From the sequence record DRR723986_609: a stretch of DNA of 40,885 nucleotides; one strand, 5' to 3'. The translations under genes were made by a program, and so were the position numbers. Of the stretch, positions 18,084 through 35,754 are shown piece after piece (within the stretch, counting starts at the first letter, position 1; each line of letters starts with the position of its first letter). The notes beneath the pieces are model-generated. The model was not told the origin of the DNA and made no database searches. It worked only from the letters and a program-made list of their open reading frames with translations.

Positions 18084-19565
18084 ATGGATAAAATTTATGA
18101 CACAGTAATTATCGGCGGAGGCATTTCAGGAATGGCCACTGCATTGCGGCGTCATAAAAAAGGTGATAAAGTTCTGCTAATTGAAAAATCTGATCAATTG
18201 GGTGGCAAGCTCGGTGTACTCAAATGGGGTGATTATGTTTGGGATAAAGGCCCATCATTATTTACTCTTCCCAACTTGATTACAGAGCTGTTTACGCTTT
18301 ACAATAAAAATCCTCAAGATTACTTTGAGTACTCTGAAATGGAAGAAAATTGCAGGTACTATTTTGAGAATTTGCCTCCATTCACATTTTTCAAGGATAA
18401 AGAAAAACGAAGAACTGAATTAGAAAAAATTTTCAGTAAAAAGGAGATCGATCAAGTAGAAGATTATTTAGCGAATACAGAGAAAATCTACAACGAAATC
18501 GGGGAACTGTTTATAGATGAGCCCAAACTGGGACTTAAGGATATGTTTAAACTAAAGATAGTTAGGCAGTATCCTAAATTGATGTCTCAGCAGATGCTGC
18601 ATTCGCTTAACGACTACAATCAAAAGCAATTTCAGAATCCACACCTCGTACAATTATTCAATCGATTTGGAACCTATAACGGATCTAACCCTTATCAAAT
18701 GAGTGGACTTTACAGTATGATTCCGCATCTTGAGTTGAATTTGGGCACATTTTTTCCGAAAGGTGGCATGCGAGCAATTATTGATAGTCTTGAAAAATTG
18801 ATGCGAGAAGAAGGAATTGAATACGCATTAAACATTGAAAAAATAAAGGTTAGCGATAAAGAGAAAGGGGTAATTGTCAGTGTTGAGGATCAAATAATTG
18901 AAGCAAAATGCGTAGTGTCCGCGATTGACCATATGACGTTTTATGACAATATTTATCAAGATGATCGCGCAAAAAATAAATACAAAGATCAGGTAAAATC
19001 AACATCTGCGGTTGTGTTTTATTGGGCAGTTAATCACAAATTTGATGAAATTGGATTGCATAATATGTTGTTTTCGTCAGATTATCAGGATGAATTTGAA
19101 CAGATATTTGATAATCGAAAAATTCCAAAATCCCCTTCAATATACATTCACAATAGCTCCGTTGTTGAACCCAATCAAGCGCCTGAAAATGGTCAGAATT
19201 GGTTTGTGATGATCAATACGCCGGCAGGAATAGAACCGAGTGCAAATCAAATAAATGAATTGAGAGAATTTGTGATGTCAAGAGTTAATGAGCTAGTAGG
19301 TATTGATATTAAAGATCATATCATTCATGAGAAAACATGGACCATGAGAGGAATTGAAAATGATACTGGATCATTGGACGGGGCACTTTACGGAGCTGCG
19401 TTTAATACCAAAACAGCATCTTTCAAACGTCACGGAAATCAGAGTAAAAAGAATAAGAACATCTATTTTACTGGAGGGTCAGTTCATCCTGGAGGGGGAA
19501 TTCCATTGGTGTTGAAATCAGCAAAAATTGTAGATCATTTAATTGATAAAAATGGCAATCATTAG
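18084..19565 (+). CDS. crtD: 1-hydroxycarotenoid 3,4-desaturase
   Basis: Second CrtI-family protein with WDKGPSLFTLP, LFNRFGTYNGSNPY, GALYG and GGSVHPGGGIPL, the pattern of Bacteroidota CrtD. Confidence 0.85.
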   Translation: MDKIYDTVIIGGGISGMATALRRHKKGDKVLLIEKSDQLGGKLGVLKWGDYVWDKGPSLFTLPNLITELFTLYNKNPQDYFEYSEMEENCRYYFENLPPFTFFKDKEKRRTELEKIFSKKEIDQVEDYLANTEKIYNEIGELFIDEPKLGLKDMFKLKIVRQYPKLMSQQMLHSLNDYNQKQFQNPHLVQLFNRFGTYNGSNPYQMSGLYSMIPHLELNLGTFFPKGGMRAIIDSLEKLMREEGIEYALNIEKIKVSDKEKGVIVSVEDQIIEAKCVVSAIDHMTFYDNIYQDDRAKNKYKDQVKSTSAVVFYWAVNHKFDEIGLHNMLFSSDYQDEFEQIFDNRKIPKSPSIYIHNSSVVEPNQAPENGQNWFVMINTPAGIEPSANQINELREFVMSRVNELVGIDIKDHIIHEKTWTMRGIENDTGSLDGALYGAAFNTKTASFKRHGNQSKKNKNIYFTGGSVHPGGGIPLVLKSAKIVDHLIDKNGNH

Positions 19566-20169
19566 AAATTATACCTTTTTGATTTTGCTCATCTTGCATT
19601 TGGTGGGTATAGGATTGTTTGCCTATTTGCAATACGCTCCAGAAATTTCCTACGTAACTATTTTGCTCAGCGCGGTACTCGTTTTTTTTAACGAACCAAA
19701 ATCAAATAAAACGATATTAATTTTCATCTCAATTTTTTTAGCCGGTTTCGTCATTGAATTAATTGGCGTGCAAACTGGCTTGCTGTTTGGGAGTTACAGC
19801 TACGAAACAGCAATGGGGCCCTTATTCATGGAAACGCCGATTGTTATAGGCGCGACATGGTATGCCGTTGTTGTAGGGGCTGCAAATATTGCAAGACGTA
19901 TTAAGGGTTCTATTTTTGGCAGGTCAATTATAGCTGGCTTGATGGCGGTTGGTCTTGATTTTTTTATTGAGAAAGTCGCCATTGCTTATGGTTTTTGGTC
20001 TTGGGAACTAGGCGTTATTCCTCTGTTCAATTATGTGTGCTGGTTTATTTTTAGCGCATTGTTTGCCTTTTTGTACCTCCAATTTCAAAAAAATGAAAAT
20101 GCTGCGGCGATCAAACTCTTTGTTATTTGGTTGTTGTTTTTTGGACTTCTAATTCTACTAAAAGTATGA
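19552..20169 (+). CDS. cruF: Carotenoid 1,2-hydratase (CruF/DUF422 family)
   Basis: ELIGVQTG..FGSYSY....GP, D...E..A....FWSW and P..NY..W motifs in a polytopic membrane protein. Start at ATG 19552. Confidence 0.8.
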   Translation: MAIIRNYTFLILLILHLVGIGLFAYLQYAPEISYVTILLSAVLVFFNEPKSNKTILIFISIFLAGFVIELIGVQTGLLFGSYSYETAMGPLFMETPIVIGATWYAVVVGAANIARRIKGSIFGRSIIAGLMAVGLDFFIEKVAIAYGFWSWELGVIPLFNYVCWFIFSALFAFLYLQFQKNENAAAIKLFVIWLLFFGLLILLKV

Positions 20170-20612
20170 TAATAGTATTAGTTATAGGTTTAGCCTTTTT
20201 TGGTATGGAGTTCATGGCCTGGTTTACCCATAAGTATATCATGCACGGCTTACTATGGTCAATTCATGAAGATCATCATCAACCGAGAAGCAAAAGATTT
20301 GAGAAAAACGATTTATTCTTTTTGATTTTTGCTATTCCATCATGGTTGTGTATAATGCTGGGGCTTATTTACGGAGCTTCCATTGCTGTTGCCGTTGGTT
20401 TTGGAATCATGTTATATGGAATTACTTATTTTTTAGTTCATGATGTGTTAATTCACCGCAGATTCAAATGGTTTGACAACACTAATAATCGTTATTTTAA
20501 GGCCATCAGAAAAGCGCACAAAATTCACCATAAAAACATGAAAAAAGAGCATGGCTCTTGTTTTGGGATGCTTATTGTGCCAAGAAAGTATTTCATTGAC
20601 CAAAAATCATAA
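20166..20612 (+). CDS. crtZ: Beta-carotene hydroxylase
   Basis: His boxes HKYIMH, HEDHH, HDVLIH and HKIHH; FEKNDLF. ATGA overlap with cruF at 20166. Confidence 0.92.
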   Translation: MIIVLVIGLAFFGMEFMAWFTHKYIMHGLLWSIHEDHHQPRSKRFEKNDLFFLIFAIPSWLCIMLGLIYGASIAVAVGFGIMLYGITYFLVHDVLIHRRFKWFDNTNNRYFKAIRKAHKIHHKNMKKEHGSCFGMLIVPRKYFIDQKS

Positions 20613-21304
20613 TGACAGATTATTTGTATCTGATATTAATTTTACTGACGCCTTTGGGACCTTTAGCATTAAGTTTCGATAAGAAAGTACGCTATGTTAC
20701 TAAATGGAAATGGGCTATGTTATCTGCAATACTAGTTGCAATTCCCTATTTAATTTGGGATGAGATTTTCACTAAAAATGGCTTTTGGGGCTTTAATCAA
20801 AACTACTTAACTGGAGCTTATGTAGGGAATTTACCTATTGAAGAAGTCTCCTTTTTTATAGTTGTACCTTTTGCTTGCACCTTTATTTACGCTTGTGTCA
20901 GGTACTATTTCAAATCTGCAAATCTTCAAAATTTCAATCTCATTTTTTATTTGTTGTTTTTTGCTTTTATGATCTGGATCGGCGAAGTTGGTGTAAAAGG
21001 ATGGTACACCAGAATTGCCATTAGTTTGGGTTTAATTTTAAGTCTGTTTTTGTTTATTCGTAGAGATAAATTTGTTTTTATCCCATTGACTTTCGTTTTT
21101 TCATTAATTCCTTTCTTAATCATGAACGGTATCTTGACTGGCTCCTTCATCAAAGAACCAATAGTTTGGTACAATGAGGTTGAATTTTCAGGATTAAGAA
21201 TCTATACCATACCATGTGAGGATGTGGTGTATGGCTTTGGTTTAATTGTTTTGAACCTATTTCTTTTTATTTGGATGGAAAAACGATTTACCAAACCACT
21301 TTAA
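20612..21304 (+). CDS. crtY: Membrane lycopene cyclase (fused CrtYc/Yd type)
   Basis: Two cyclase repeats (WD....G.WGFN...LPIEE..FF and NGILTG...VWYN...IPCED..YG). Confidence 0.8.
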   Translation: MTDYLYLILILLTPLGPLALSFDKKVRYVTKWKWAMLSAILVAIPYLIWDEIFTKNGFWGFNQNYLTGAYVGNLPIEEVSFFIVVPFACTFIYACVRYYFKSANLQNFNLIFYLLFFAFMIWIGEVGVKGWYTRIAISLGLILSLFLFIRRDKFVFIPLTFVFSLIPFLIMNGILTGSFIKEPIVWYNEVEFSGLRIYTIPCEDVVYGFGLIVLNLFLFIWMEKRFTKPL

Positions 21305-22378: not shown

Positions 22379-24739
22379 ATGAAAACCTTTATTTTCACAA
22401 TAGCTCTATTTATCTCATCTGGATTGTATGCGCAAAATTTAACGCAAACAGTTAGGGGAACCTTGAAAGACAAGCAAACCTTTGAGCCGTTAATTGGAGC
22501 GAAAATCATTATTGTAGGGACAGAACCTTTGATCGGAGCTGTGTCAGATATAGATGGAAAATTTAGGCTAGAAAATGTCCCGGTAGGAAGACAACAAATC
22601 GCCATCAGCTATGTGGGTTATGAACCTATTGTTTTATCAAACATTGATATAGCTTCAAAAGAAGTGGTTTTAAACTTAGAAATGACTGAAGCCGTGAATA
22701 TGATGAACAAGGTAGAGGTGAAGGCGAATAAAGAAAAAGGCGAACAAATTAATAAAATGGCTACGGTCTCTGTCCGTCAATTTTCTGTTGAACAATCTAA
22801 CAGATTTGCAGGTTCGTTTAATGATGTAGCGAGAATGGCTCAAAATTTTGCCGGTGTTCAAGGTGCGGATGATTCAAGAAATGATATTGTGATCAGAGGA
22901 AATTCTCCAACAGGAGTTTTATTCAGAATGGAGGGAGTTGATATTCCAAATCCTAATCACTTTGCACGTTTTGGTACAACTGGCGGCCCTGTTTCTATTT
23001 TAAATAATAACGTTTTAGCGAACTCAGATTTTATGACTGGCGCCTTTCCCGCTGAGTATGGGAATGCTATAGCAGGGGTTTTTGATTTGAAAATGAAAAC
23101 CGGAAATAATGAGAAGCATGAGTTCATGTTTCAATTTGGCTTCAATGGTGCTGAGCTAATGGCAGAAGGGCCATTGAGCAGAAAAACAGGAGCATCTTAC
23201 TTAGTGAATTACCGTTACTCAACACTTAAACTATTTCAAGTAATCGGAATTAATTTTGGCTCTACAGCTTTACCCAATTATCAAGACGCAGCATTTAAAC
23301 TTAATTTTCCTTCTAAAAGGGGATTAACTACAGTTTTTGGTATGGGAGGATTAAGCAATATTAATATTCTAGCAGAGAATGCAGACAGTACTGATTTGTT
23401 TGCGCTTGATTATTCAAATACTTATTTCAATTCTCAAGTTGGAGTAGTGGGTGTTGCACATAAACAAAGAATTGGAAAAAAGTCATACATCAACGCTTCG
23501 TTAGCTGCTCAAGCAAACGTCAACATAATTGACAATGATACGGTAGATTTTAATTTCGAAAACCCTTTTAAAACTTACGAAAGCAATTCTGTGATTGCAA
23601 AAATTGTAGGGGATGTGTTTTACAATTATAAGATCAATGCTAAAAACATGTTTAAAGTAGGCGTGCATGCTGATTTATTTTTGCTGGATCTTGTTGATTC
23701 TGTATATTCTGGTCCTTCTTTTGGTTTTGAAACCTTAAGAAATTTTACCGGAAACACTTTGTTATTGCAACCTTACGCTCAATACCGATACCGACCTACT
23801 GAAAAAATAACTTTGAATGTTGGTTTGCACTCCCAGACTTTAACCTTGAATTCAGAAACTTCAATTGAACCTAGATTTGGTGCTGCTTGGCAAATGACTA
23901 AAAAAGATCGATTGTCATTTGGTTATGGATTGCATAGTCAAATGCAGCCGATAGAAGTTTATTTTAAGGAAGTGCCAGACGGTACTGGGCAAACAACACA
24001 GCCTAACAATGAATTAAAATTTACTAAAAGTCATCACTTGGTTTTAGGCTACCAACACCGATTTGCTTATGGTATAAACGCAAAACTTGAAGCCTATTAT
24101 CAATCTTTATATGACGTTCCAGTAACCCCGCAACCTTCTTCTTTCTCAATGGTGAATTTTGGTTCTGATTTTAATACCGCTCTACCCGATTCATTAGATA
24201 ATGATGGAACCGCATCAAACTACGGCTTAGAACTGACCCTTGAAAAATATTTGGATAAAGGCTTTTATTTTATGATAACCACGTCAATTTACGAGTCAAA
24301 ATATAAAGGTTCTAACGGTGTAGAATTTAACTCAGCCTTTAACGGAAACTATACCTTTAATACCTTGGCGGGTTACGAATTTAGATTCAAAGAAGGTAAA
24401 AAGATTAAACCATCTTTGACCATAGACTTTAAGTTCACTTATAATGGAGGAAGTAGATATACACCTGTTTTGGTTGAAGAAAGTAATTTGGCTGGTACTG
24501 AAGTGAGAGATTTTTCTCAAACCAATACGCTTACTTATCCTGATTATGTGAAATTAAATGCACGAGTAGCCTTTAAAATGGTAGGTAAAAAAGTCACGCA
24601 AGAAATAGCCTTTGATGCCCAGAATATAACCAACCGAAAAAATGTTTTTGTCCAAGAATATAACGTGCAGTCAGGTAAATTCGAAACAACCTATCAGACA
24701 GGTTTTCTGCCGATAGGTCAAATTCGAATATATTTTTAG
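22379..24739 (+). CDS. TonB-dependent receptor with an N-terminal carboxypeptidase-regulatory-like domain
   Basis: Signal peptide, EPLIGA...DIDGKF.L.NVPVG, plug motif (DVARMAQNFAGV...NDIVIRGNSP), barrel ending in F. Confidence 0.9.
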   Translation: MKTFIFTIALFISSGLYAQNLTQTVRGTLKDKQTFEPLIGAKIIIVGTEPLIGAVSDIDGKFRLENVPVGRQQIAISYVGYEPIVLSNIDIASKEVVLNLEMTEAVNMMNKVEVKANKEKGEQINKMATVSVRQFSVEQSNRFAGSFNDVARMAQNFAGVQGADDSRNDIVIRGNSPTGVLFRMEGVDIPNPNHFARFGTTGGPVSILNNNVLANSDFMTGAFPAEYGNAIAGVFDLKMKTGNNEKHEFMFQFGFNGAELMAEGPLSRKTGASYLVNYRYSTLKLFQVIGINFGSTALPNYQDAAFKLNFPSKRGLTTVFGMGGLSNINILAENADSTDLFALDYSNTYFNSQVGVVGVAHKQRIGKKSYINASLAAQANVNIIDNDTVDFNFENPFKTYESNSVIAKIVGDVFYNYKINAKNMFKVGVHADLFLLDLVDSVYSGPSFGFETLRNFTGNTLLLQPYAQYRYRPTEKITLNVGLHSQTLTLNSETSIEPRFGAAWQMTKKDRLSFGYGLHSQMQPIEVYFKEVPDGTGQTTQPNNELKFTKSHHLVLGYQHRFAYGINAKLEAYYQSLYDVPVTPQPSSFSMVNFGSDFNTALPDSLDNDGTASNYGLELTLEKYLDKGFYFMITTSIYESKYKGSNGVEFNSAFNGNYTFNTLAGYEFRFKEGKKIKPSLTIDFKFTYNGGSRYTPVLVEESNLAGTEVRDFSQTNTLTYPDYVKLNARVAFKMVGKKVTQEIAFDAQNITNRKNVFVQEYNVQSGKFETTYQTGFLPIGQIRIYF

Positions 24740-27315
24740 TATTGTTTCAGTACTTTCTTCGTGAGGACCTGCCCATCTGCTTTAAGCAGACTTACCAAGT
24801 AGAACCCATCCTCAAGGTCCGTAAGGTCAAGTTGGCCTTCAAAAGATCCTAAATTCATTACCTGTTGCCCTTGCATATTATGTACGAATATTTGAGCAAC
24901 ATTTTCAGATGTTAGAATAGTTATTAATCCACTTGTCGGATTAGGGAAGACTTGGTAATCAATTAATTTAGGGTCTAAATCGATTTCATCTACACTACCG
25001 GTTGTGCAATCATCTAGACAGATATTAGAAATACACATGGTAGAATTACCTAATTCAACATAATCAAAATCTCCTTCTATAGTGATATACTGCTCTCCAG
25101 CTATAGTATCAGAAGTATAGGTCCAATTTGGATTGAAAATGGTGGTATCGTAATAAGCTCCATAAATCGTATCTCCGTCAATTGCGGTATAGTAAGCGGC
25201 TAGCACACTATAGGTTAGTTTTTTACAGTTGAAGAGCGAGCTTGAAACATCTATTCCCAGATTACCAATAAAACAGAATTCGTTGTTTGTAGAATCAATA
25301 GAAATTGGATAGAAGTTGGTGCTGTCCACTTTTATTAGGTCAATATCCCCTGATGTCATAAAGACGGACCCGTTAGGATAAGTTGCGTGATCTGTTCCAA
25401 CAGCTTGAATATAGGTGTAACTGTAGTTGCTAAAATCAAGACATGATCCTGATGATGGCGCGCATTCAGCTAAACAAATATCTTTCAAACACATTGTTGA
25501 ATTACCAAATTCAACGTAGTCAAAATCACCTTCAATAGTAACTACTTGGTCTCCTCCGGTTGTATCTGAATGATAGGTCCAATTGGCGTTGTAAATTGTA
25601 GTATCGTAATAAGCGCCATAAATAGTATCACCATCAATAATAGTATAATACGCCGCTAATATTGAGTAGGTCAATTTCTTACAAGCGAAAGATGAAGATG
25701 ATATATCAATTCCTAAATTGCCGATCCAACAGAAGCTGTTTTCGGTTGAGTCTATAGATAGAGGGAAGAAGTTGGTGCTGTCTACTTTGATGAGGTGAAT
25801 GTCTCCTGAAGCCATAAAAGTTGAACCGTTAGGATAGGTCGAATGATCCGAGCCCACATTTTGAATATAAGCGTTACTGTAGTTTCCAAAATCCAAGCAT
25901 GAGTTACTCGAAGGGGCACATTCGGATAAGCAGATGTTTTTAATCGTTGAACTGGTCATCCCAATTTGAACGTAATCAAAAGCACCCTCAATGGTTATTA
26001 ACGGATCCGTAGAGGTATTGCTGACAGTGAAAGTCCAATTAGGTCTATAAATTACCGTGTCAGTATAAGGGTTCCATATGGTATCGCCATCAATTGAATA
26101 CAAAATATTGAATTCGTTAAATGATAGTACTCTGCATGAATAATTTGCTGTTGATACGTCTATCCCAATTTCCCCTACGTAGGATAGAGAATTATTCGTT
26201 GAATCAACGAACTGATAGAATGAGTTGGATGTTGTTGGTTTGATTAATTGAATATCCCCTGAAGTTGCAAAAGTTGATCCTGCGGGATAAGTAACATGGT
26301 CGGTTGAAACTGTATTCATATGAGCATTCGTGTAATCACCAAAATTTAAGCAAGAATTTGATGAACAATCCGTCAAGCAAATGTTGCTTATACATGTGGT
26401 TGATTGGCTGATTTCAACATAATCAAATTGACCAATTATTCCGACTGTTAATTCACCTCCTGTCGTATCTGAATCATAAGTCCAGTTTCCAAAATGAACG
26501 GTGGTATCAGCGTATGTTGGGTTAATGGAATCTCCATCAACAACTATCCAAAATCCCGCAATTAAATCAAAAGTTAACTCTCTACACGCATAATTTGCTG
26601 AAGAAACATCAATGCCTAACCATCCGATATAACACATTTGATTATTCCCAGCATCAATGAACTGGTAAAAACTTGATGTATTGGGCTTAATTAATTGAAT
26701 ATCTCCTTCTGTTATAAAGGCCGAACCGGCTGGGTATGTTGTGTGGTCATTCGTAACATCATTTAAATAAGCATCCGAATAATTACTAAAGTTTAAACAT
26801 GAGGGTCCTCCTGTATCACAAGAGCTTAAGCAGATGTTACTGATACAAGTGGTAGAAGGGCTAATTTCAACATAATCAAAATCTCCTTGGATAGTTATAC
26901 TATGATCTCCACCGGTAGTATCAGAATCAAAAGTCCACATTCCACTTGAGATGGTGGTGTCAGTGTAGCCTACTCCTATAGTGTCGCCGTCAATTGTTAT
27001 CCAAAAACCAGCTACTAAATCAAAGGTTAATTCTCTGCAGCTCGCACTAGAGGTTGAAACATCAATACCCAATTCTCCAATATAACACATTTCATTATCG
27101 GCTGAATTAATGAATTGATAGAAAGTGCTGGTGTTGGGTTTGATGAGCTGTATGTCTCCCTCCACGATAAAAGCAGACCCTGGAGGATAAGTTGCATGAT
27201 CGCTTGATACAGTATTGATATAAGTATCCGTGTAATCCCCAAAATTGATACAGTCAATTTGTGAATATCCAACTGAAAATACAAACGCGATAATAAAAGT
27301 TAAGATGCTTTTCAT
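24736..27315 (-). CDS. T9SS-secreted protein with five tandem ~150-aa Cys-containing repeats
   Basis: Signal peptide ending YSQ, five repeats from C[IL][ND]F to ICL..C, then a CTD (VFPNPTSG...HNMQGQ...LEDGFYLV...KKVLK). Confidence 0.85.
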   Translation of the reverse strand: MKSILTFIIAFVFSVGYSQIDCINFGDYTDTYINTVSSDHATYPPGSAFIVEGDIQLIKPNTSTFYQFINSADNEMCYIGELGIDVSTSSASCRELTFDLVAGFWITIDGDTIGVGYTDTTISSGMWTFDSDTTGGDHSITIQGDFDYVEISPSTTCISNICLSSCDTGGPSCLNFSNYSDAYLNDVTNDHTTYPAGSAFITEGDIQLIKPNTSSFYQFIDAGNNQMCYIGWLGIDVSSANYACRELTFDLIAGFWIVVDGDSINPTYADTTVHFGNWTYDSDTTGGELTVGIIGQFDYVEISQSTTCISNICLTDCSSNSCLNFGDYTNAHMNTVSTDHVTYPAGSTFATSGDIQLIKPTTSNSFYQFVDSTNNSLSYVGEIGIDVSTANYSCRVLSFNEFNILYSIDGDTIWNPYTDTVIYRPNWTFTVSNTSTDPLITIEGAFDYVQIGMTSSTIKNICLSECAPSSNSCLDFGNYSNAYIQNVGSDHSTYPNGSTFMASGDIHLIKVDSTNFFPLSIDSTENSFCWIGNLGIDISSSSFACKKLTYSILAAYYTIIDGDTIYGAYYDTTIYNANWTYHSDTTGGDQVVTIEGDFDYVEFGNSTMCLKDICLAECAPSSGSCLDFSNYSYTYIQAVGTDHATYPNGSVFMTSGDIDLIKVDSTNFYPISIDSTNNEFCFIGNLGIDVSSSLFNCKKLTYSVLAAYYTAIDGDTIYGAYYDTTIFNPNWTYTSDTIAGEQYITIEGDFDYVELGNSTMCISNICLDDCTTGSVDEIDLDPKLIDYQVFPNPTSGLITILTSENVAQIFVHNMQGQQVMNLGSFEGQLDLTDLEDGFYLVSLLKADGQVLTKKVLKQY

Positions 27316-27404: not shown

Positions 27405-28508
27405 ATGAATAAACTCACAATTATATTTTTATTAGGTGTATTAGTCTCGTTAGGCGCCTGTAAAAAAAAGGGATGTACTGATCCTGAAGCATTAAATTAT
27501 CATACTAATGTTAAAGAGGATAATTCGCTTTGTAAGTATGAAGACACCACTCTGGTAACTGTTCAACGTATTTCATATGGCAGTCATGAGCGTCAACATT
27601 TTGATTTGTATTTGCCTCCTGGACATAATAGTCAGACTAAAACCGTAATCATGATTCATGGTGGAGCCTGGGTGCTTGGACCTCAAGCTCAAGATTCGGT
27701 TATTACTTTCAACGGTGGACTTGGATGGGATATTGTTAACCCTCTACTTTCTGATGGATATGCTGTTGCTGTGATGAAGTATCGTTTGGCGTGTTATACC
27801 ACGCAAACAAGCGCTTTTACAGGTGATCCAAATTTTTATATAGGAGATATGATAGAGGACATTGATTTGGCCATAGGTAAATTAAAAGCCGAGGCCTCAA
27901 CTTTAGGAGTTTCCTCAAACAACTTTGCATTAATAGGAGAAAGTGCTGGTGCTCAAATTTCATTAATCTACGCACTAAGAAATTCTTCAGATTCAGATTT
28001 GAAAACGGTAATTTCCTTTTATTCTCCAGCTCTAATGGATGACGAGTCATTTAAATCGGCTGCAGGAACCTTTCCTTATACAGCGATTCCTTTGAGCAAT
28101 GAGTTCGGGATGCCGAAATACGCGAATAACTGTAATTTTACAACTACAGGCAATGTCAACCTTTTTTGGGGTTTAAAAAGTTTGGCGGGATATGATCTAC
28201 AAATGGGTACTCAGTTTCCAGCTTACACAGATACTTTAAGTCCTGGTTATCTTCCCAATATTCAGAGAAACTTGCCCACTTTTATTTTGCACGGAGCAGC
28301 TGATGATTTGGTTCCTCCTGCTCATGCGGATACTCTGATTGACAGAATTACCTCTGCTTTCGGAACATCACCCGCATCTTCTGGTGACTTTAATGCTCAA
28401 CACAAAATGCTGAAATATGCGAATTGCGGACATGGATGGAATGGAGGTTCATGCAACAGGTCGCAAATGATTGATGATGTTCAAAGTTGGTTAGCTGCAC
28501 ATTTTTAG
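27405..28508 (+). CDS. Alpha/beta-hydrolase (HGG-type esterase/lipase) lipoprotein
   Basis: Lipobox LGA-C, HGGAW oxyanion hole, GESAG nucleophile, LHGAADDLVP (Asp) and CGHGW (His). Confidence 0.85.
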   Translation: MNKLTIIFLLGVLVSLGACKKKGCTDPEALNYHTNVKEDNSLCKYEDTTLVTVQRISYGSHERQHFDLYLPPGHNSQTKTVIMIHGGAWVLGPQAQDSVITFNGGLGWDIVNPLLSDGYAVAVMKYRLACYTTQTSAFTGDPNFYIGDMIEDIDLAIGKLKAEASTLGVSSNNFALIGESAGAQISLIYALRNSSDSDLKTVISFYSPALMDDESFKSAAGTFPYTAIPLSNEFGMPKYANNCNFTTTGNVNLFWGLKSLAGYDLQMGTQFPAYTDTLSPGYLPNIQRNLPTFILHGAADDLVPPAHADTLIDRITSAFGTSPASSGDFNAQHKMLKYANCGHGWNGGSCNRSQMIDDVQSWLAAHF

Positions 28509-28515
28509 AAATACT

Positions 28516-28541
28516 AAAACCCTCTCGTCAGAGGGTTTTTT
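28516..28541. terminator. Intrinsic terminator, probably bidirectional
   Basis: Perfect stem-loop AAAACCCTCT-CGTC-AGAGGGTTTT followed by further Ts, between two convergent stop codons (28508 and 28543). Confidence 0.85.
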
Positions 28542-28542
28542 C

Positions 28543-28662
28543 TTAACAACAACTGTTATTTTCATTGCAACAGTTTCCGTTGCAGTTGCAATCACATTGA
28601 CATGATTGTTGTGTTGTGCATTGGCAATTTTCACAATTGCATTTTTCGTTTCTAGTATTCAT
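28543..28662 (-). CDS. Small Cys-rich protein, putative metallothionein (39 aa, 12 Cys); not in the ORF track
   Basis: Hand translation: MNTRNEKCNCENCQCTTQQSCQCDCNCNGNCCNENNSCC*. ATG is preceded by an A-rich leader; it has its own promoter-like motif and is followed by a terminator. Confidence 0.8.
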   Translation of the reverse strand: MNTRNEKCNCENCQCTTQQSCQCDCNCNGNCCNENNSCC

Positions 28663-28700
28663 AACTCTATTTTTTAATTTGACTTTAGTGTCATATATAG

Positions 28701-28726
28701 AGACGAACTACTTAGAAAAAGACGCA
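28701..28726 (-). promoter_or_regulatory. ECF-type promoter for the Cys-rich peptide
   Basis: Minus strand TGCGTC-TTTTTCTAAGTAGTT-CGTCT (15-nt spacer), matching the site upstream of the sigma gene. Confidence 0.7.
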
Positions 28727-28733
28727 ATTTTTA

Positions 28734-29270
28734 TTAACACGAACAGTTTTCATTTGAACTGCCAATAATGTTGCCGTATTTATCTGTTTGAATTTGACAA
28801 CACGAAACAAATAAGTCATTTAATTTTTTTCTAGCTCGCTGAATACGACTTTTGGCTGCAGAATAACTTATGTTTTGCGAAGCAGCGTAATCTTTTTGAG
28901 AAACGTTTTCGAATGCAGTTTTTATAATGGCATCTCTATCTTTTTCATCTAATTGTTGGATATGTGATTTCAGACAACCATAGAACTCTGAGTTTAAATT
29001 TGAATCCGATAAGTCTTCTGGAAGTTCAGGGATTTGGTCGGTGCTAATTTTCTTTTTCCGGTAATAATCAATTATAGAATTTCGGGTAATTTGATAAACC
29101 CATGAGGATAATTTATCCTCATTACTTAGTTTCGAAATATTCATGTGAATTTTAAGAAATACATCTTGCAATATATCCTCACTAATAGATTTTGAATTCA
29201 CCCTTTTCAAGATAAAGTTGAATAATTGATCCTTAAGATCAACCCATATTTCTTCTGTTACAGCATTCAT
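28734..29270 (-). CDS. sigZ: SigZ-type ECF sigma factor with a Cys-rich C-terminus
   Basis: EDILQDVFLKI...SWVYQITRNSIIDYYR, SQKDYA....SYSAAKSRIQRAR and the tail CC.....YGNII......CSC characteristic of SigZ-like sigmas. Confidence 0.8.
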   Translation of the reverse strand: MNAVTEEIWVDLKDQLFNFILKRVNSKSISEDILQDVFLKIHMNISKLSNEDKLSSWVYQITRNSIIDYYRKKKISTDQIPELPEDLSDSNLNSEFYGCLKSHIQQLDEKDRDAIIKTAFENVSQKDYAASQNISYSAAKSRIQRARKKLNDLFVSCCQIQTDKYGNIIGSSNENCSC

Positions 29271-29279
29271 TATTTATAA

Positions 29280-29305
29280 AGACGTATTAAACCAAAAAAG
29301 ATGCA
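29280..29305 (-). promoter_or_regulatory. ECF-type autoregulatory promoter of the SigZ-like gene
   Basis: Minus strand TGCATC-TTTTTTGGTTTAATA-CGTCT (15-nt spacer) ending 9 nt before the ATG. Confidence 0.7.
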
Positions 29306-30596: not shown

Positions 30597-31205
30597 TTAT
30601 TTCAGCTCGTCCATGTCACGAATGAGTTTGTTGATTGGGTCTTTTTTATTTGATCGGTTGATGATTAAAGTACTCACAAAGTATGAAAGTAATAACATTA
30701 TTGGAATTAATAAAAATAGATACCAGTTAGAAATCGCCAACCCATCTATACCAAGCATTTCACCCAAATTTTCATGACTTTTTTTAATGCAGCTGTAAAT
30801 GATCATAGGAGTCATGATTATTGGAATTGAAAGTAAACCAAGATTTCGGTTGAATCTTGTGAGTTGATCCCTTTTTAATTTAAAGGCCAATAAATACTGA
30901 TAGCAATTATCTTGAAAGTCAATCTTTTTTATTCTTTTTAGTTGATATAAGCCGAGGAACGTCCAAGGAATCATTACGGCTGCACTTAGAAGTCCCCAAA
31001 TAAGATCATTGCCAACAAAGTAATTAATTAGCACCATTAAAGCAGAAGCCGGTATCATTAAATAGGCACCGAACCTCATTTTATCTTCTTCTTTGCTTAT
31101 TGACATTTTTGACTTCATATTGTAAAAAGCAATCACCTTAGGTGCTATCAATTCATTCGATTCAATAAAACCTTTTTTCCAGATATTTTCAATTGATTTT
31201 TCCAT
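30597..31205 (-). CDS. Four-TM membrane protein, probable anti-sigma partner
   Basis: Overlaps the ECF gene end by 17 nt. 'MEKSIENIWK' N-terminus, four hydrophobic helices and a C-terminal 'LIRDMDELK'. Confidence 0.65.
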   Translation of the reverse strand: MEKSIENIWKKGFIESNELIAPKVIAFYNMKSKMSISKEEDKMRFGAYLMIPASALMVLINYFVGNDLIWGLLSAAVMIPWTFLGLYQLKRIKKIDFQDNCYQYLLAFKLKRDQLTRFNRNLGLLSIPIIMTPMIIYSCIKKSHENLGEMLGIDGLAISNWYLFLLIPIMLLLSYFVSTLIINRSNKKDPINKLIRDMDELK

Positions 31206-31680
31206 CTAATAATTTTTTTAATCGTTCTTTAATTCTATTAATTCTAACTCCAATATTGTTGGATGTTGTTCCAGTGATACTTGCGATTTCTTCATACGAT
31301 TTTTCCTCCAAATACAGCAAAATTACAGCTCTATCAACTTCAGAAAGTCGTTTAATTGCGAGATAAAGGAGATTTAAATCCTCATCATCAAATACTTTTG
31401 AATCCTCGAGTAATTCAGTTGGTATTTCCTGTTCAGAATGGTTTAGTTTTATTTTCTTGTCCTTCTTTAATAGAGTCAAACAGACGTTAAGAGATACTTT
31501 GTAAACCCATGTTGACCATTCAGATTTATGTAGAAATTTTTCATGACTTCGCCAAATTTGAAGGCAAACTTCTTGATAATAATCTTCAAAATCTTCTTGG
31601 GTGTTACTATATGCCCTGCACATCTTTATAATAATGCCAGCGTAAGGAAGAATGAATTGTTTGTAAAAGTCGCTACTCAC
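31189..31680 (-). CDS. ECF sigma factor (GTG start)
   Basis: DFEDYYQEVCLQIW...STWVYKVSLN and DRAVILLYLEEKSYEEIA...NIGVRINRIK. Confidence 0.9.
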   Translation of the reverse strand: MSSDFYKQFILPYAGIIIKMCRAYSNTQEDFEDYYQEVCLQIWRSHEKFLHKSEWSTWVYKVSLNVCLTLLKKDKKIKLNHSEQEIPTELLEDSKVFDDEDLNLLYLAIKRLSEVDRAVILLYLEEKSYEEIASITGTTSNNIGVRINRIKERLKKLLDGKIN

Positions 31681-32617: not shown

Positions 32618-32981
32618 CCTGCTGAGCTCTTGTTTGAACATGACATGCCCTCAATGTCGGGCTACCCGGATGTTTAAAAAACCAGGCTTTTTCGTTTATT
32701 TCAAAACTTTTGAAATGCATGCCAATTGCGGAAAGTGTGGATTGAAATTCGAGTTGGAGCCAGGCTTTTGGTATGGTGCGCTTTGGGCGAGTTATCCTTT
32801 ATTAATAATTATAGAATTTCCTTTTCTGCTAATGTCCCTTTTTAAGAGCTGGGGAAATTATTGGTCACCATTAGTTATAATGGCTATTGTCTTTATCATT
32901 TTATGGCCAACTTTTATCAGACTAGGACGATCTATTTGGGTCCACGCCTGGGTAAAATTTATTCCGAACGGACAGGTTTAA
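32592..32981 (+). CDS. DUF983 domain protein
   Basis: CPQC...M...CGKCG..FELEPGFWYGA..SY, two TM helices, R.GRSIW. Confidence 0.85.
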   Translation: MDKEPLSSNLLSSCLNMTCPQCRATRMFKKPGFFVYFKTFEMHANCGKCGLKFELEPGFWYGALWASYPLLIIIEFPFLLMSLFKSWGNYWSPLVIMAIVFIILWPTFIRLGRSIWVHAWVKFIPNGQV

Positions 32982-33067
32982 ATGCAAGGAATCTTGAATT
33001 TGTTCGACTCAATGAACACTACATACATCCAAATGTTATTTTTGAACGTAGATTAAATAAAATAAAC

Positions 33068-33403
33068 ATGAGCAAAACATATTACGATCCAGATGATTTA
33101 AAGAAATTCGGTGATATCGCTGATTTTGAGCCAAAACTTGCCGATAAATTTTTTGATTATTATGGTGAGGTTTTTAAAGAAGGAGCGCTTACCGAAAGAG
33201 AAAAGTCTTTAATAGCACTTGCGGTATCTCATGCAGTGCAATGTCCTTATTGTATTGACGCCTATACACAAGACACACTTTCAAAAGGATGCTCCGAAGC
33301 TCAGATGATGGAGGCTGTTCATGTGGCTGCAGCTATTAAAGGCGGTGCAGCTTTAGTACATGGTGTACAAATGATGAACAAGGTGAAAAAACTCTCAATG
33401 TAA
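33068..33403 (+). CDS. AhpD/CMD-family protein (arsenosugar-biosynthesis-associated peroxidase-like)
   Basis: ALTEREKSLIALAVSHAVQCPYCIDAY...EAVHVAAAI.GGA.LVHG. Start at ATG 33068; 2 nt upstream of arsS. Confidence 0.85.
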   Translation: MSKTYYDPDDLKKFGDIADFEPKLADKFFDYYGEVFKEGALTEREKSLIALAVSHAVQCPYCIDAYTQDTLSKGCSEAQMMEAVHVAAAIKGGAALVHGVQMMNKVKKLSM

Positions 33404-33405
33404 TT

Positions 33406-34461
33406 ATGGCAAAATCTCTTAAGGCACAAGGACATAAACTTGCTAAGATTGAAGAACAAATTAAGGTACTTAATGGCGGTGATTTTGAATCAGGTGATTT
33501 ACCAACTTTTGGTCAAAAGATAGCTGAGATAGGTCACGCTCCTTTAAAACCCTCTAAATTGGAAGTTTTTCAAATCAATCTGGGCTACATGTGCAATCAA
33601 ACATGTGCACACTGTCATGTAGATGCTGGTCCTGACAGAAAAGAGATCATGACGCGCGAAACCATGCAGCAATGTGTTGACGTTATTGCTCAGCATGATT
33701 TTCCAACAGTAGATTTAACAGGAGGAGCTCCGGAAATGAATCCTGACTTCAGATGGTTTGTAGAGCAATTAACAGCTGCTGGAGCTAAAGAAATTATTGT
33801 AAGATGTAATTTGACTATCATTCTTGCCAATAAAAAATACCATGATTTACCTGAGTTTTTCAAGAAACATAAAATTAGAGTAGTCAGTTCTTTACCTTAT
33901 TATGAAGCCAGTAAAACTGATCGTCAGAGAGGTGATGGTGTTTTCGGAAAGTCTATTCAAGCTCTTCAAATGTTGAATGAAATTGGTTATGGCAAAGAAG
34001 GCACAGGCCTAATATTAGATCTTGTTTATAATCCCGCTGGAGCATTCTTGCCAGGAAATCAGGCTGCTCTTGAACAAGATTTTAAAAAGTCGTTAATGGC
34101 CAATTTTGAAATCGTATTTAATAACTTATTGGCCATAACTAATCTTCCTATTAGTCGTTTCTTGGATTACCTGATTAGATCAGAAAATTATCAGGAGTAT
34201 ATGGAGAAGTTGGTGGATGCCTACAATCCTGGAGCAGTAGAAAACGTCATGTGCAGAAACACCATAAGTATTGATTGGGAAGGGTACATGTACGACTGTG
34301 ATTTCAATCAAATGTTGTTGCTAAAAACAGATGAAAAAGTGGGTCAACACATTAGCGAATTCGATTTAGATAAAATCAATTCTAGAACGATAAAAATAGG
34401 GCAACACTGTTACGGATGCACTGCTGGTGCTGGTTCGAGTTGTCAGGGTGTTGTGGCTTAA
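33406..34461 (+). CDS. arsS: Radical SAM protein of the ArsS (arsenosugar biosynthesis) family
   Basis: CNQTCAHCHVDAGP cluster motif, DLTGGAPEMNP and C-terminal MCR..ISIDW.G..YDCDFNQ...HCYGCTAGAGSSC. Confidence 0.85.
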   Translation: MAKSLKAQGHKLAKIEEQIKVLNGGDFESGDLPTFGQKIAEIGHAPLKPSKLEVFQINLGYMCNQTCAHCHVDAGPDRKEIMTRETMQQCVDVIAQHDFPTVDLTGGAPEMNPDFRWFVEQLTAAGAKEIIVRCNLTIILANKKYHDLPEFFKKHKIRVVSSLPYYEASKTDRQRGDGVFGKSIQALQMLNEIGYGKEGTGLILDLVYNPAGAFLPGNQAALEQDFKKSLMANFEIVFNNLLAITNLPISRFLDYLIRSENYQEYMEKLVDAYNPGAVENVMCRNTISIDWEGYMYDCDFNQMLLLKTDEKVGQHISEFDLDKINSRTIKIGQHCYGCTAGAGSSCQGVVA

Positions 34462-34465
34462 AATA

Positions 34466-35716
34466 CTAGTTTCTCCAATCGTGAATCTCGGCTAGCTGCT
34501 CGTTGATGTAATTTTCAAAGTGTTCATTCTCAAACGATTCAATCACTTCACCAATGAAGGCTCGCACCAATAATTTTTTCGCGTTCTCTTTTGAAATTCC
34601 TCTGGCCTGTAAATAGAAGATAGCTTCATCATCTAATTGACCAGTCGTAGAGCCATGAGAACATTTAACGTCATCCGCATAAATTTCTAATTCGGGTTTA
34701 GAGTTTATTTTGGCATAATCAGATAACAAAATGTTTCCATTATTTTGATAAGCGTTAATCACCTGTGCATCCTTTTGAACCACAACTCGTCCGTTAAAAA
34801 CGCCTGTCGATTTGCCGCCTAAAACATATTTGTAGTTTTCATCACTCATGCAATTCGGCACCTGGTGGTCAACAAAAGTGTGGTTATCCACCACCTCATT
34901 ATCCTTTGTAATTACAGCTCCATTCATGAAGGTTTCGCAGTTCTCACCTGCAACCGCAATATTGATATTGTTTCTCACCAAAGCACCGCTTAATGTGATG
35001 GTGTTGATTTTAAATACTGAATTTCGTTCTTGGTGCACTTGCTCGGTTGAAATAATTGAATTGCTTCTCTCATCTAGCTGCGCCTTGTTAATTTTCAAAT
35101 GCGAGTTTTCAGAAACATAAGCCTCTGTGACATGATTAGTAAAACTATCAGTACTTTCTTTTGATATGAAGGTTTGGATAATCTCACTTTGTGATGATTT
35201 TCCAGCATCAATGTATAGTCTAGTATTTGCTATTATCTGATTGCCTTTTGAGACATAGATGATTTGCAGAGGACCTTTATTAATTTTATTCGCACCAATC
35301 TTTATTGAAATCACTTTTTCAAAAAACGCAGAATTGATAGATGAAAAAACATCTTTTTTATTCAAATTTTTATCGAAATAGTGCTCTTCGGCCATTCTAT
35401 CCGCACCTAAAAAATCTATTTCAAAATCCAACTTAGAAAATTGACTCAAATCTTCTCTAACGAATCCGTTCACGACCACAATATAATCGTTGGAGATAAT
35501 ATGCTTAGTCAGGTTTAATTTATCAGGATCGGCAAATTTTGAAAGTTCTAATTTCGTAAGCTTACCTAACCTAGTGTATTTCCAGTATTCATCCCTTGTG
35601 GACGGAAAGTCTAATTCACCGAGACGTTCTGCTGCCCTTTGCTGAAAATCTGCAGACGAAACATCTAAATTTTTGATGAAATTGGTTACTTTATTTGATG
35701 TTGTTATTTCTGACAT
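34466..35716 (-). CDS. sufD: Fe-S cluster assembly protein SufD
   Basis: FP..RDEYWKYT, GVFNG, KPELEIYADDVKCSHG and FYLQARGI motifs. Start at MSEITT. Confidence 0.93.
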   Translation of the reverse strand: MSEITTSNKVTNFIKNLDVSSADFQQRAAERLGELDFPSTRDEYWKYTRLGKLTKLELSKFADPDKLNLTKHIISNDYIVVVNGFVREDLSQFSKLDFEIDFLGADRMAEEHYFDKNLNKKDVFSSINSAFFEKVISIKIGANKINKGPLQIIYVSKGNQIIANTRLYIDAGKSSQSEIIQTFISKESTDSFTNHVTEAYVSENSHLKINKAQLDERSNSIISTEQVHQERNSVFKINTITLSGALVRNNINIAVAGENCETFMNGAVITKDNEVVDNHTFVDHQVPNCMSDENYKYVLGGKSTGVFNGRVVVQKDAQVINAYQNNGNILLSDYAKINSKPELEIYADDVKCSHGSTTGQLDDEAIFYLQARGISKENAKKLLVRAFIGEVIESFENEHFENYINEQLAEIHDWRN

Positions 35717-35754
35717 TATAATTAGTTCATGAGTCAATTAGTCTAGGCAATAGA

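Follow-up and report, generated by a model that had tools for sequence, protein, structure and literature searches.

The stretch of DNA analysed here (the window) comprises 40,885 nucleotides of the sequence record DRR723986_609. It contains a gene coding for a 39-amino-acid (39-aa) peptide very rich in cysteine and, just upstream of it, the gene of a sigma factor of the extracytoplasmic function (ECF) type. These two genes, their putative promoters and the terminator that follows them are the subject of this work, and they are located as follows:

28516-28539, minus strand: terminator-like hairpin of 10 pairs with a T-rich stretch, starting four bases past the peptide stop codon
28543-28662, minus strand: coding sequence of the peptide, 39 aa with 12 Cys, from the ATG (28662-28660) to the TAA stop (28545-28543), which is included in the coordinates
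28702-28726, minus strand: ECF-type promoter box of the peptide gene, TGCGTCTTTTTCTAAGTAGTTCGTC, with a -35-like TGCGTC, a 15-nt spacer and a -10-like CGTC, 39 nt from the ATG
28734-29270, minus strand: gene of a SigZ-type (ECF238-like) ECF sigma factor of 178 aa, upstream of the peptide gene, with the Pfam domains Sigma70_r2 and Sigma70_r4_2
29281-29305, minus strand: promoter box of the sigma gene, TGCATCTTTTTTGGTTTAATACGTC, of the variant form TGCATC-N15-CGTC, 10 nt from the sigma ATG

The original prediction, made from the letters of the window alone, had placed a metallothionein-like open reading frame (ORF) of 39 aa and 12 Cys at 28543-28662. This ORF is indeed found there, on the minus strand, which the prediction had not given; the plus-strand reading of the same interval is interrupted by a stop codon. 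The translation of the minus strand, MNTRNEKCNCENCQCTTQQSCQCDCNCNGNCCNENNSCC, agrees with the Cys motifs that had been listed, namely CxCxxCxC (C8-C15), CxCxCxC (C21-C27), CC (31-32) and a terminal CC (38-39). Cysteine accounts for 12 of the 39 residues (30.8%) and the rest is mostly Asn, Thr, Ser, Gln, Glu and Asp. Aromatic residues, His and a hydrophobic core had been described as missing, and the peptide actually contains no F, W, Y or H, with M1 as its sole hydrophobic residue. With a Cys fraction of 0.308 it ranks first among the 284 ORFs of 30 aa or more that six-frame translation of the window gives; the runner-up has 0.182 and the median is 0.022.

The gene had also been said to fit between a promoter-like motif and a terminator. 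The terminator stands: the hairpin at 28516-28539 is bidirectional and also serves a convergent gene coding for a 367-aa alpha/beta-hydrolase (esterase), with its plus-strand stem at 28522-28535. Three terminator-like sites were found in the 1.1 kb near the peptide ORF when 0.6 were expected, and among 20 homologous peptide genes a crude scan detected 12 with a hairpin and a T-run at 90 nt or less from the stop. The kind of promoter-like motif had not been specified; what is conserved is an ECF-type box and not a housekeeping promoter, and a scan for generic sigma-70 promoters gave nothing for the peptide ORF on its own strand.

Six-frame searches with the peptide as query covered 201 genomes of the family, and searches anchored on the sigma gene covered 401. 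The peptide query retrieved an identical copy in the nearest genome and related peptides, over their full length, in two other species of the genus. In both of these species the peptide ORF is located directly 3' of the orthologous sigma gene, and the sigma-peptide pair is kept across the three species of the genus while the flanking genes differ (window, L002 and L004). The 11 remaining matches to this query (E 0.02-6.5) contained stop codons or corresponded to unrelated Cys-coding frames and were judged spurious. A close homologue of the SigZ-type sigma was found in 26 of the 401 family genomes, belonging to 9 of 29 genera. One of these loci ends at a contig end, leaving 25 that could be assessed, and 20 of the 25 have a CxC-rich ORF of 27-61 aa downstream on the same strand; among the other five, two have different Cys-rich small ORFs and three have none. 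The proposed link of such peptides to SigZ-type sigmas, and the scan downstream of SigZ-like genes that had been suggested for small ORFs with conserved Cys, are both borne out by these counts, to which a wider survey described below adds 12 of 80 loci. In the genus g1 the peptide is present in all four genomes that have the sigma. In three of its four sigma-less genomes the six-frame search with the peptide found nothing, and the weak match in the fourth (G105, E 0.19) contains a stop codon and was judged spurious.

Because it is conserved in other genomes the ORF is judged to be more than a product of chance, and the comparison of homologous loci confirms it as a real, conserved and never-annotated gene. 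Unannotated is also how it had been described, and when 10 of the peptides were looked up as exact sequences among ~15 billion predicted proteins, nine were absent. The tenth, a 57-aa peptide of the CC type from Paenibacillus, is present in that collection without a name. Five species of one genus code for an identical 27-aa peptide with nucleotide differences only at codon position 3. In an alignment of 24 family members there are nine conserved Cys columns, each of them mixing TGT and TGC codons, and all the frames are open in spite of an ORF length that varies between 26 and 56 codons (up to 61 in the wider set). These 24 peptides contain 29.5% Cys, 19.9% Asn, 11.5% Thr and 8.8% Ser, and only 3 of their 864 residues are aromatic or His. 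Furthermore, a strain variant found in a contig from an RNA library has kept all 12 Cys, with four substitutions at non-Cys positions. The confinement of differences to third positions, the alternation of TGT and TGC in the Cys columns, the open frames of varied length and the strain variant that spares the Cys show that the protein is under selection, which on its Cys residues is purifying.

These patterns bear on whether the ORF could be a Cys-sensing leader or attenuator, or a chance ORF in a non-coding RNA. Polycysteine short ORFs have been reported as cysteine-responsive attenuators in mycobacteria (bioRxiv 10.1101/834739), and these leaderless ORFs resemble the one in the window in being short, unannotated and Cys-rich. 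However, they lie before operons and act in cis, whereas the ORF of the window lies between a promoter and a terminator of its own, with no gene downstream. What follows it is the terminator and the convergent gene, as is also the case in L002 and L004, so that nothing is left to attenuate. With substitution patterns indicative of selection on the protein and no match to Rfam over the ORF, such an origin is hardly credible.

Metallothioneins are defined operationally as small, Cys-rich proteins with few aromatic residues that form metal-thiolate clusters. The peptide has a mass under about 10 kDa (39 aa, with 26-56 aa among the aligned members of the family), a high content of Cys arranged in CxC, CC and CxxC, and few or no aromatic residues or His. 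By its composition it can be described as metallothionein-like, with a putative binding of metals. Searches against Pfam (E<=0.01) and NCBIfam (E<=1) gave no family match for the peptide, and the Pfam metallothionein models, including PF02069, matched none of the 24 family members at E<=10. A profile of the 24 peptides had no matches among 1.84 billion representative proteins (E<=0.001) or among the sequences of the PDB (E<=10), both being weak evidence with a profile as short (34 positions) and compositionally biased as this one. In the ESM Atlas the best cluster, an unnamed one, scored 0.84 and a Metallothio_5 cluster 0.81, all below a meaningful level. In the literature on links between ECF sigmas and arsM, on peptides of this type and on metallothioneins of Bacteroidetes we found no description of a sigma-peptide module. 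The new Bacteroidota metallothionein family that had been put forward is thus partly upheld: there is a conserved family of 26-61 aa that matches no known family and is present in several Bacteroidota lineages and one Balneolaceae metagenome-assembled genome (MAG), and its metal binding is putative.

The presumed sensor is the neighbouring sigma factor. Its best NCBIfam matches are the two SigZ models, both below their cutoffs (180.3 bits for a cutoff of 212 and 166.7 bits for one of 168.65). It has five conserved Cys: C99 in the linker between sigma2 and sigma4, C157-C158 immediately past region 4 and C176-x-C178, with which the C-terminal tail, CCQIQTDKYGNIIGSSNENCSC, ends. C157, C158, C176 and C178 are invariant in 17 aligned sigmas and C99 is found in 16 of them. 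The only gene downstream of the sigma is that of the peptide, followed by the terminator, and there is no anti-sigma gene there. SigZ of Bacillus subtilis and CorE2 of Myxococcus xanthus have been grouped in ECF238, which is described as having a Cys-rich C-terminal extension of ~20 aa, a Cys in the linker and no anti-sigma factor, and for which the authors suggested that the binding of a metal is the activating event (PMC7826278). The signal is Cu for CorE, and Cd and Zn for CorE2; both act through their Cys, the arrangement of which sets the specificity, and a single Cys change switches CorE2 from Cd to Cu (PMC8999054, PMC4937300). A CxC motif between sigma2 and sigma4.2 is conserved in all 67 members of ECF44 (PMC4937300).

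The window sigma shares with CorE/CorE2 (ECF44, in or next to ECF238) and with SigZ (ECF238s9) the Cys-rich C-terminal extension of ~20 aa, the linker Cys and the lack of an anti-sigma factor. It differs from CorE in that its linker has a single conserved Cys and not the CxC of ECF44; actually the linker CxC is absent from all 17 aligned sigmas, which have one conserved Cys there (CC in one of them). Because the motif that defines ECF44 is missing, the window sigma is assigned by its sequence to the SigZ/ECF24 branch of ECF238, to which it would belong, and not to CorE proper. The targets are also different, the known ones of CorE being a multicopper oxidase and a P-type ATPase, and the putative one of the window sigma a thionein-like peptide.

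The promoter box has the general form TGC(G/A)TC-N15/16-CGTC. The one of the peptide gene (28702-28726) is a single match in the window, where 0.03 would be expected. In the family loci TGCGTC(C/T)TTTT-spacer-CGTC precedes all 20 CxC-peptide genes, with 28-43 nt from the end of the box to the ATG in 19 of them (in L034 this holds only if an internal ATG is taken as the start), and in the three loci where the peptide gene is located 170-520 nt past the sigma stop the box travels with it. A box is also found before the sigma gene in 22 of the 26 family loci, at 9-17 nt from the ATG in 21 and at 32 nt in L036. In the window, the gap of only 10 nt between box and sigma ATG implies a putative leaderless or near-leaderless mRNA and autoregulation. 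Searched genome-wide in five relatives, a relaxed version of the box gave 12 matches, compared with three for the backwards control, and a stricter pattern agreed with the relaxed one. Since nine of the 12 matches are the sites of the peptide and sigma genes, the apparent regulon consists of these two and looks like a two-gene circuit. A third box match in the window, of the TGCATC variant, is located at 34766-34791 (plus strand), antisense inside a SufD-like ORF (34466-35737, minus strand), and is also present in the nearest genome, G001. With 0.15 matches expected it is probably due to chance.

We propose that the peptide is a sigma-induced thionein that traps a thiophilic metal or metalloid, a reading to which we give a probability of roughly 0.6. 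The SigZ-type sigma would be its own sensor by means of the five Cys of its linker and C-terminal tail, with no anti-sigma factor involved. If CorE and CorE2 are a guide, the sigma would become active once these Cys have bound a thiophilic metal or metalloid, and it would then read the two TGC(G/A)TC-N15/16-CGTC promoters; the conservation and placement of these boxes are observed and their dependence on the sigma is presumed. The promoter before the sigma gene would produce a positive feedback and the one located 39 nt before the peptide gene would lead to the expression of the single output gene. The peptide would bind the inducer in metal-thiolate clusters, as metallothioneins do, and with the fall of the free inducer the sigma would be switched off again. 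Candidate ligands are As(III)/Sb(III), Cd(II), Zn(II), Cu(I) and Hg(II).

Relatives of the sigma were also collected in a wider scan with one genome per species, which gave 80 loci (L051-L130) from many phyla. The pattern TGC(G/A)TC-N13-17-CGTC had 99 matches in these loci, all but one of them with a spacer of 15 or 16 nt, compared with six matches for the backwards control. The box is present in 70 of the 80 loci, just upstream of the sigma gene in 27 and elsewhere in the locus in 65. The genes found behind the boxes that do not belong to the sigma gene code for:

CxC-type small peptides: 12 loci, one of them on the opposite strand, mostly in Bacteroidota
peptides of 55-64 aa with CC pairs: 6 loci, in Paenibacillus, Ornithinibacillus, an Anaerolineales MAG and a Bacteroidetes MAG
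CC-rich proteins with a signal peptide: 3 loci, in Saprospiraceae
arsenite methyltransferase (arsM): 15 loci above the NCBI cutoff (316-373 bits, cutoff 263), plus two unscored look-alikes
ArsI/CadI enzymes: 1 locus above the cutoff and 2 partial
permeases with a PxCSCG motif: 5 loci, SO_0444/SaoE-like efflux proteins with scores below the cutoff
thioredoxin-like DF-family CxxC proteins: 5 loci, with scores below the cutoff
aldo-keto reductases: 2 loci, in Bacillus sonorensis and Cohnella

The 12 loci with CxC peptides come from Flavobacteriales, Sphingobacteriaceae, Chryseobacterium, Vicingaceae, Parvicellaceae, Flammeovirga, Balneolaceae and unclassified Bacteroidota. L051, from the cultured species Flagellimonas myxillae, combines a sigma gene and the two boxes with a peptide of 28 aa. 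Four Firmicutes loci (L065, L078, L080 and L086, from Ornithinibacillus and Paenibacillus) have peptides of 56-62 aa with the pattern CC...CC...CGC...CC behind the same box, and it is one of these that was present, unnamed, in the large protein collection. In L056, L062, L063, L036, L037 and L130 the sigma genes are accompanied by genes for small proteins rich in Cys, with repeated CC pairs and an N-terminus resembling a signal peptide, most of them behind the same box but not the one of L036. These proteins might be the equivalents, in the periplasm or outside the cell, of the cytoplasmic peptides.

Because the same sigma family and the same box precede arsM, ArsI/CadI and Cys-bearing permeases in other lineages, the range of ligands could be wider than metals and include a metalloid such as As(III). 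The tail of the sigma ends C-x-C in 9 of the 12 loci with CxC peptides and reads CCCC in four of the five with permeases; next to arsM and DF-like genes it is C-x-x-C in most cases. The Cys pattern of the tail varies with the class of target, and this co-occurrence suggests matched sensor/output pairs. In a FastTree phylogeny of 99 sigmas, 24 of the 27 linked to CxC peptides are found in one clade, apart from the clades of the arsM, permease and Paenibacillus types. The tree was midpoint-rooted and its clades were read without support values; it omits six family loci (three with interrupted sigma frames, one at a contig end and two near-duplicates) and the duplicate broad locus L060.

The grouping of the CxC-peptide-linked sigmas mostly in one clade, their strict one-to-one pairing with the peptide and an apparent regulon of just two genes might also be expected if the peptide mainly regulates the sigma, as an anti-sigma-like partner or as a metal buffer for the Cys tail, and is not devoted to bulk detoxification. 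In classical ECF systems the gene beside the sigma is usually its regulator. However, the same position is occupied by enzymes and transporters in other lineages, and a peptide with no role beyond regulation would deprive the circuit of an output, should the regulon contain no further gene. ECF238 sigmas are, moreover, described as working without anti-sigma factors (PMC7826278). A prediction of the complex of sigma and peptide returned a score of 0.00 ('no answer'), which is neither for nor against binding. We consider a mainly regulatory peptide quite improbable.

A number of observations weigh against the metal(loid)-trapping thionein as proposed here. Metatranscriptome contigs from two libraries of different studies overlap the peptide gene, one covering 28468-28705 and derived from a variant strain, the other covering 28593-28744 and identical to the window except for one gap; the lack of RNA-contig cover at 28723-29051 in X5 is not taken as a sign either way. 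Both contigs reach into or through the promoter box and are for this reason weak as evidence of expression, indicating at most presence in RNA libraries, with read-through from the sigma gene or carry-over of DNA as possible sources. AlphaFold2 applied to the peptide alignment gave a predicted local distance difference test (pLDDT) value of 48.6 without secondary structure, an uninformative result. In L020, L028 and L031 in-frame stop codons interrupt the sigma gene, and yet the peptide ORF and the promoter box are intact, which could be due to assembly errors or to decay of the sigma with retention of the peptide. Since the Cys arrangement sets the specificity in CorE2, the inducer of the arsM-linked sigmas may differ from that of the thionein-linked clade and need not be the same. 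Two of the points come from published work. The sigmaZ of B. subtilis does not direct its own transcription, according to PMC4105308. ECF238 is said in the supplement of PMC7826278, in its accessible part, to have no conserved promoter motif, no autoregulation and a genomic context conserved in one subgroup only; by contrast, in the relatives of the window sigma both the promoter box and the box upstream of the sigma itself are conserved, and the counts given above would contradict the published statements on the promoter motif and the single subgroup.

The last of these points is provided by the aldo-keto reductases, which suit electrophile stress better than metal stress. The genes of Bacillus sonorensis and Cohnella recall yrpG of B. 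subtilis, which we take to be an aldo-keto reductase as well. One of the two targets suggested for sigmaZ in B. subtilis is precisely yrpG (PMC4105308). Along with the DF-family thioredoxin-like CxxC proteins of five loci (scores below the cutoff) and a sensor made of cysteines alone, the aldo-keto reductases would be in line with a peptide acting as a sacrificial thiol sponge against oxidants or electrophiles (quinones, aldehydes, chlorine species), the Cys of the sigma sensing thiol modification. Nevertheless, among those targets of the box that can be identified, arsenic and metal genes are the most frequent (15 arsM, ArsI/CadI and the SO_0444/SaoE-like permeases), and the sole characterised relatives, CorE and CorE2, respond to metals. 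A peptide with ~30% Cys in CxC repeats and without a catalytic partner is a typical metal-thiolate binder, and this also counts against the sponge, which we hold to be unlikely.

If the peptide is, as we prefer, an induced metal(loid) thionein, a much broader scheme can be tentatively drawn. In many phyla, SigZ-type (ECF238) sigmas might be one-protein sensors of arsenite and further thiophilic metals and metalloids, autoregulating through TGCGTC-N15/16-CGTC and controlling one detoxification gene each, with a tail suited to what they control (C-x-x-C for arsM, CCCC for a permease bearing Cys and C-x-C for a thionein). The output in Bacteroidota would then be thioneins of 26-61 aa missed by gene callers, forming the first sigma-thionein circuit described in bacteria, and the window peptide would possibly be dedicated to binding arsenic or cadmium. 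Taken as a whole, with all its parts together, this scheme is possible but rather doubtful.

Among the known metallothioneins the closest in appearance would be the short, Cys-only copper thioneins of fungi. The peptide shares with them a very small size, ~30% Cys in CxC, CC and CxxC, no aromatic residues or His, and the lack of a hydrophobic core and of a predicted metal-free fold. Unlike them it is bacterial, is preceded by an ECF-sigma-type promoter, has no detectable sequence relation to any Pfam metallothionein and is a putative metal binder. SmtA has a zinc-finger-like fold, and a fold of this type is not expected for the peptide. SmtA/BmtA (PF02069) are also small bacterial Cys-rich proteins with a dedicated metal sensor (SmtB for SmtA; PMC10141476), but none of the 24 family members matches PF02069, the peptide has no His ligands or aromatic residues, and its putative regulator is a sigma and not an ArsR/SmtB repressor. 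The mycobacterial MymT was long overlooked by annotation. It is a RicR-regulated, copper-protective metallothionein of Mycobacterium tuberculosis (PMC10141476), similar to the peptide, in a comparison by description and not by sequence, as a small bacterial Cys-rich peptide under a dedicated metal sensor, and different in having a CsoR-family repressor as regulator instead of a sigma factor.

Few families of bacterial metallothioneins have been characterised and, if our reading is true, a widespread family invisible to annotation would be added to them. It would also provide a function and a promoter for the SigZ/ECF24 branch of ECF238, which previously had no known signal, no defined regulon and, as published, no conserved promoter. 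The circuit is minimal, a sensor sigma with two promoters and a single tiny output gene, which makes it easily testable, and it could serve as a compact part for biosensing or sequestration of metals and metalloids. Judging from the association with arsM, ArsI and permeases in other phyla, genes for arsenic and soft metals may also be regulated through sigma factors, beside the ArsR repressors.

In addition, the window contains other genes in the vicinity of the pair or related to its possible function:

24736-27315, minus strand: 859-aa protein with five or six repeats of ~140 aa ending in Cys-containing motifs and a type IX secretion system (T9SS) C-terminal sorting domain
30597-31680, minus strand: another ECF sigma, of 163 aa, and after it a membrane protein of 202 aa without family match, 1.3 kb upstream of the SigZ-type gene
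32861-34461, plus strand: ArsS (arsenosugar radical S-adenosylmethionine (SAM) protein, 451 bits for a cutoff of 300) and a peroxidase-like partner (193 bits for a cutoff of 120), 3.6-4.1 kb from the sigma gene

The ArsS pair shows that there is arsenic biochemistry in this organism, and nothing ties its genes to the box; no arsM was seen among the window ORFs between 20 and 36 kb. The radical SAM gene (33406-34461) is 4.7 kb off the peptide gene, and the peptide, short, Cys-rich and with a hypervariable core, could be taken for the precursor of a ribosomally synthesised and post-translationally modified peptide (RiPP). The radical SAM protein, however, is ArsS (its 451 bits are well over the cutoff), the flanking genes vary between species (window, L002, L004) with no maturase accompanying the pair, no division into leader and core is obvious, and the peptide gene has its own terminator. 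A RiPP precursor is consequently very improbable, and we rank it behind the thiol sponge and then the regulatory partner, leaving only the attenuator or chance ORF below it.

Given that the 859-aa protein has a T9SS sorting domain, the organism is a member of the Bacteroidota. The second ECF sigma and the 202-aa membrane protein may be a classical sigma/anti-sigma pair. Finally, three small membrane-protein ORFs at 19543-21304 (plus strand), one of them with His-rich HxxxxH and HxxHH motifs, resemble carotenoid cyclase and hydroxylase genes and may code for such enzymes.

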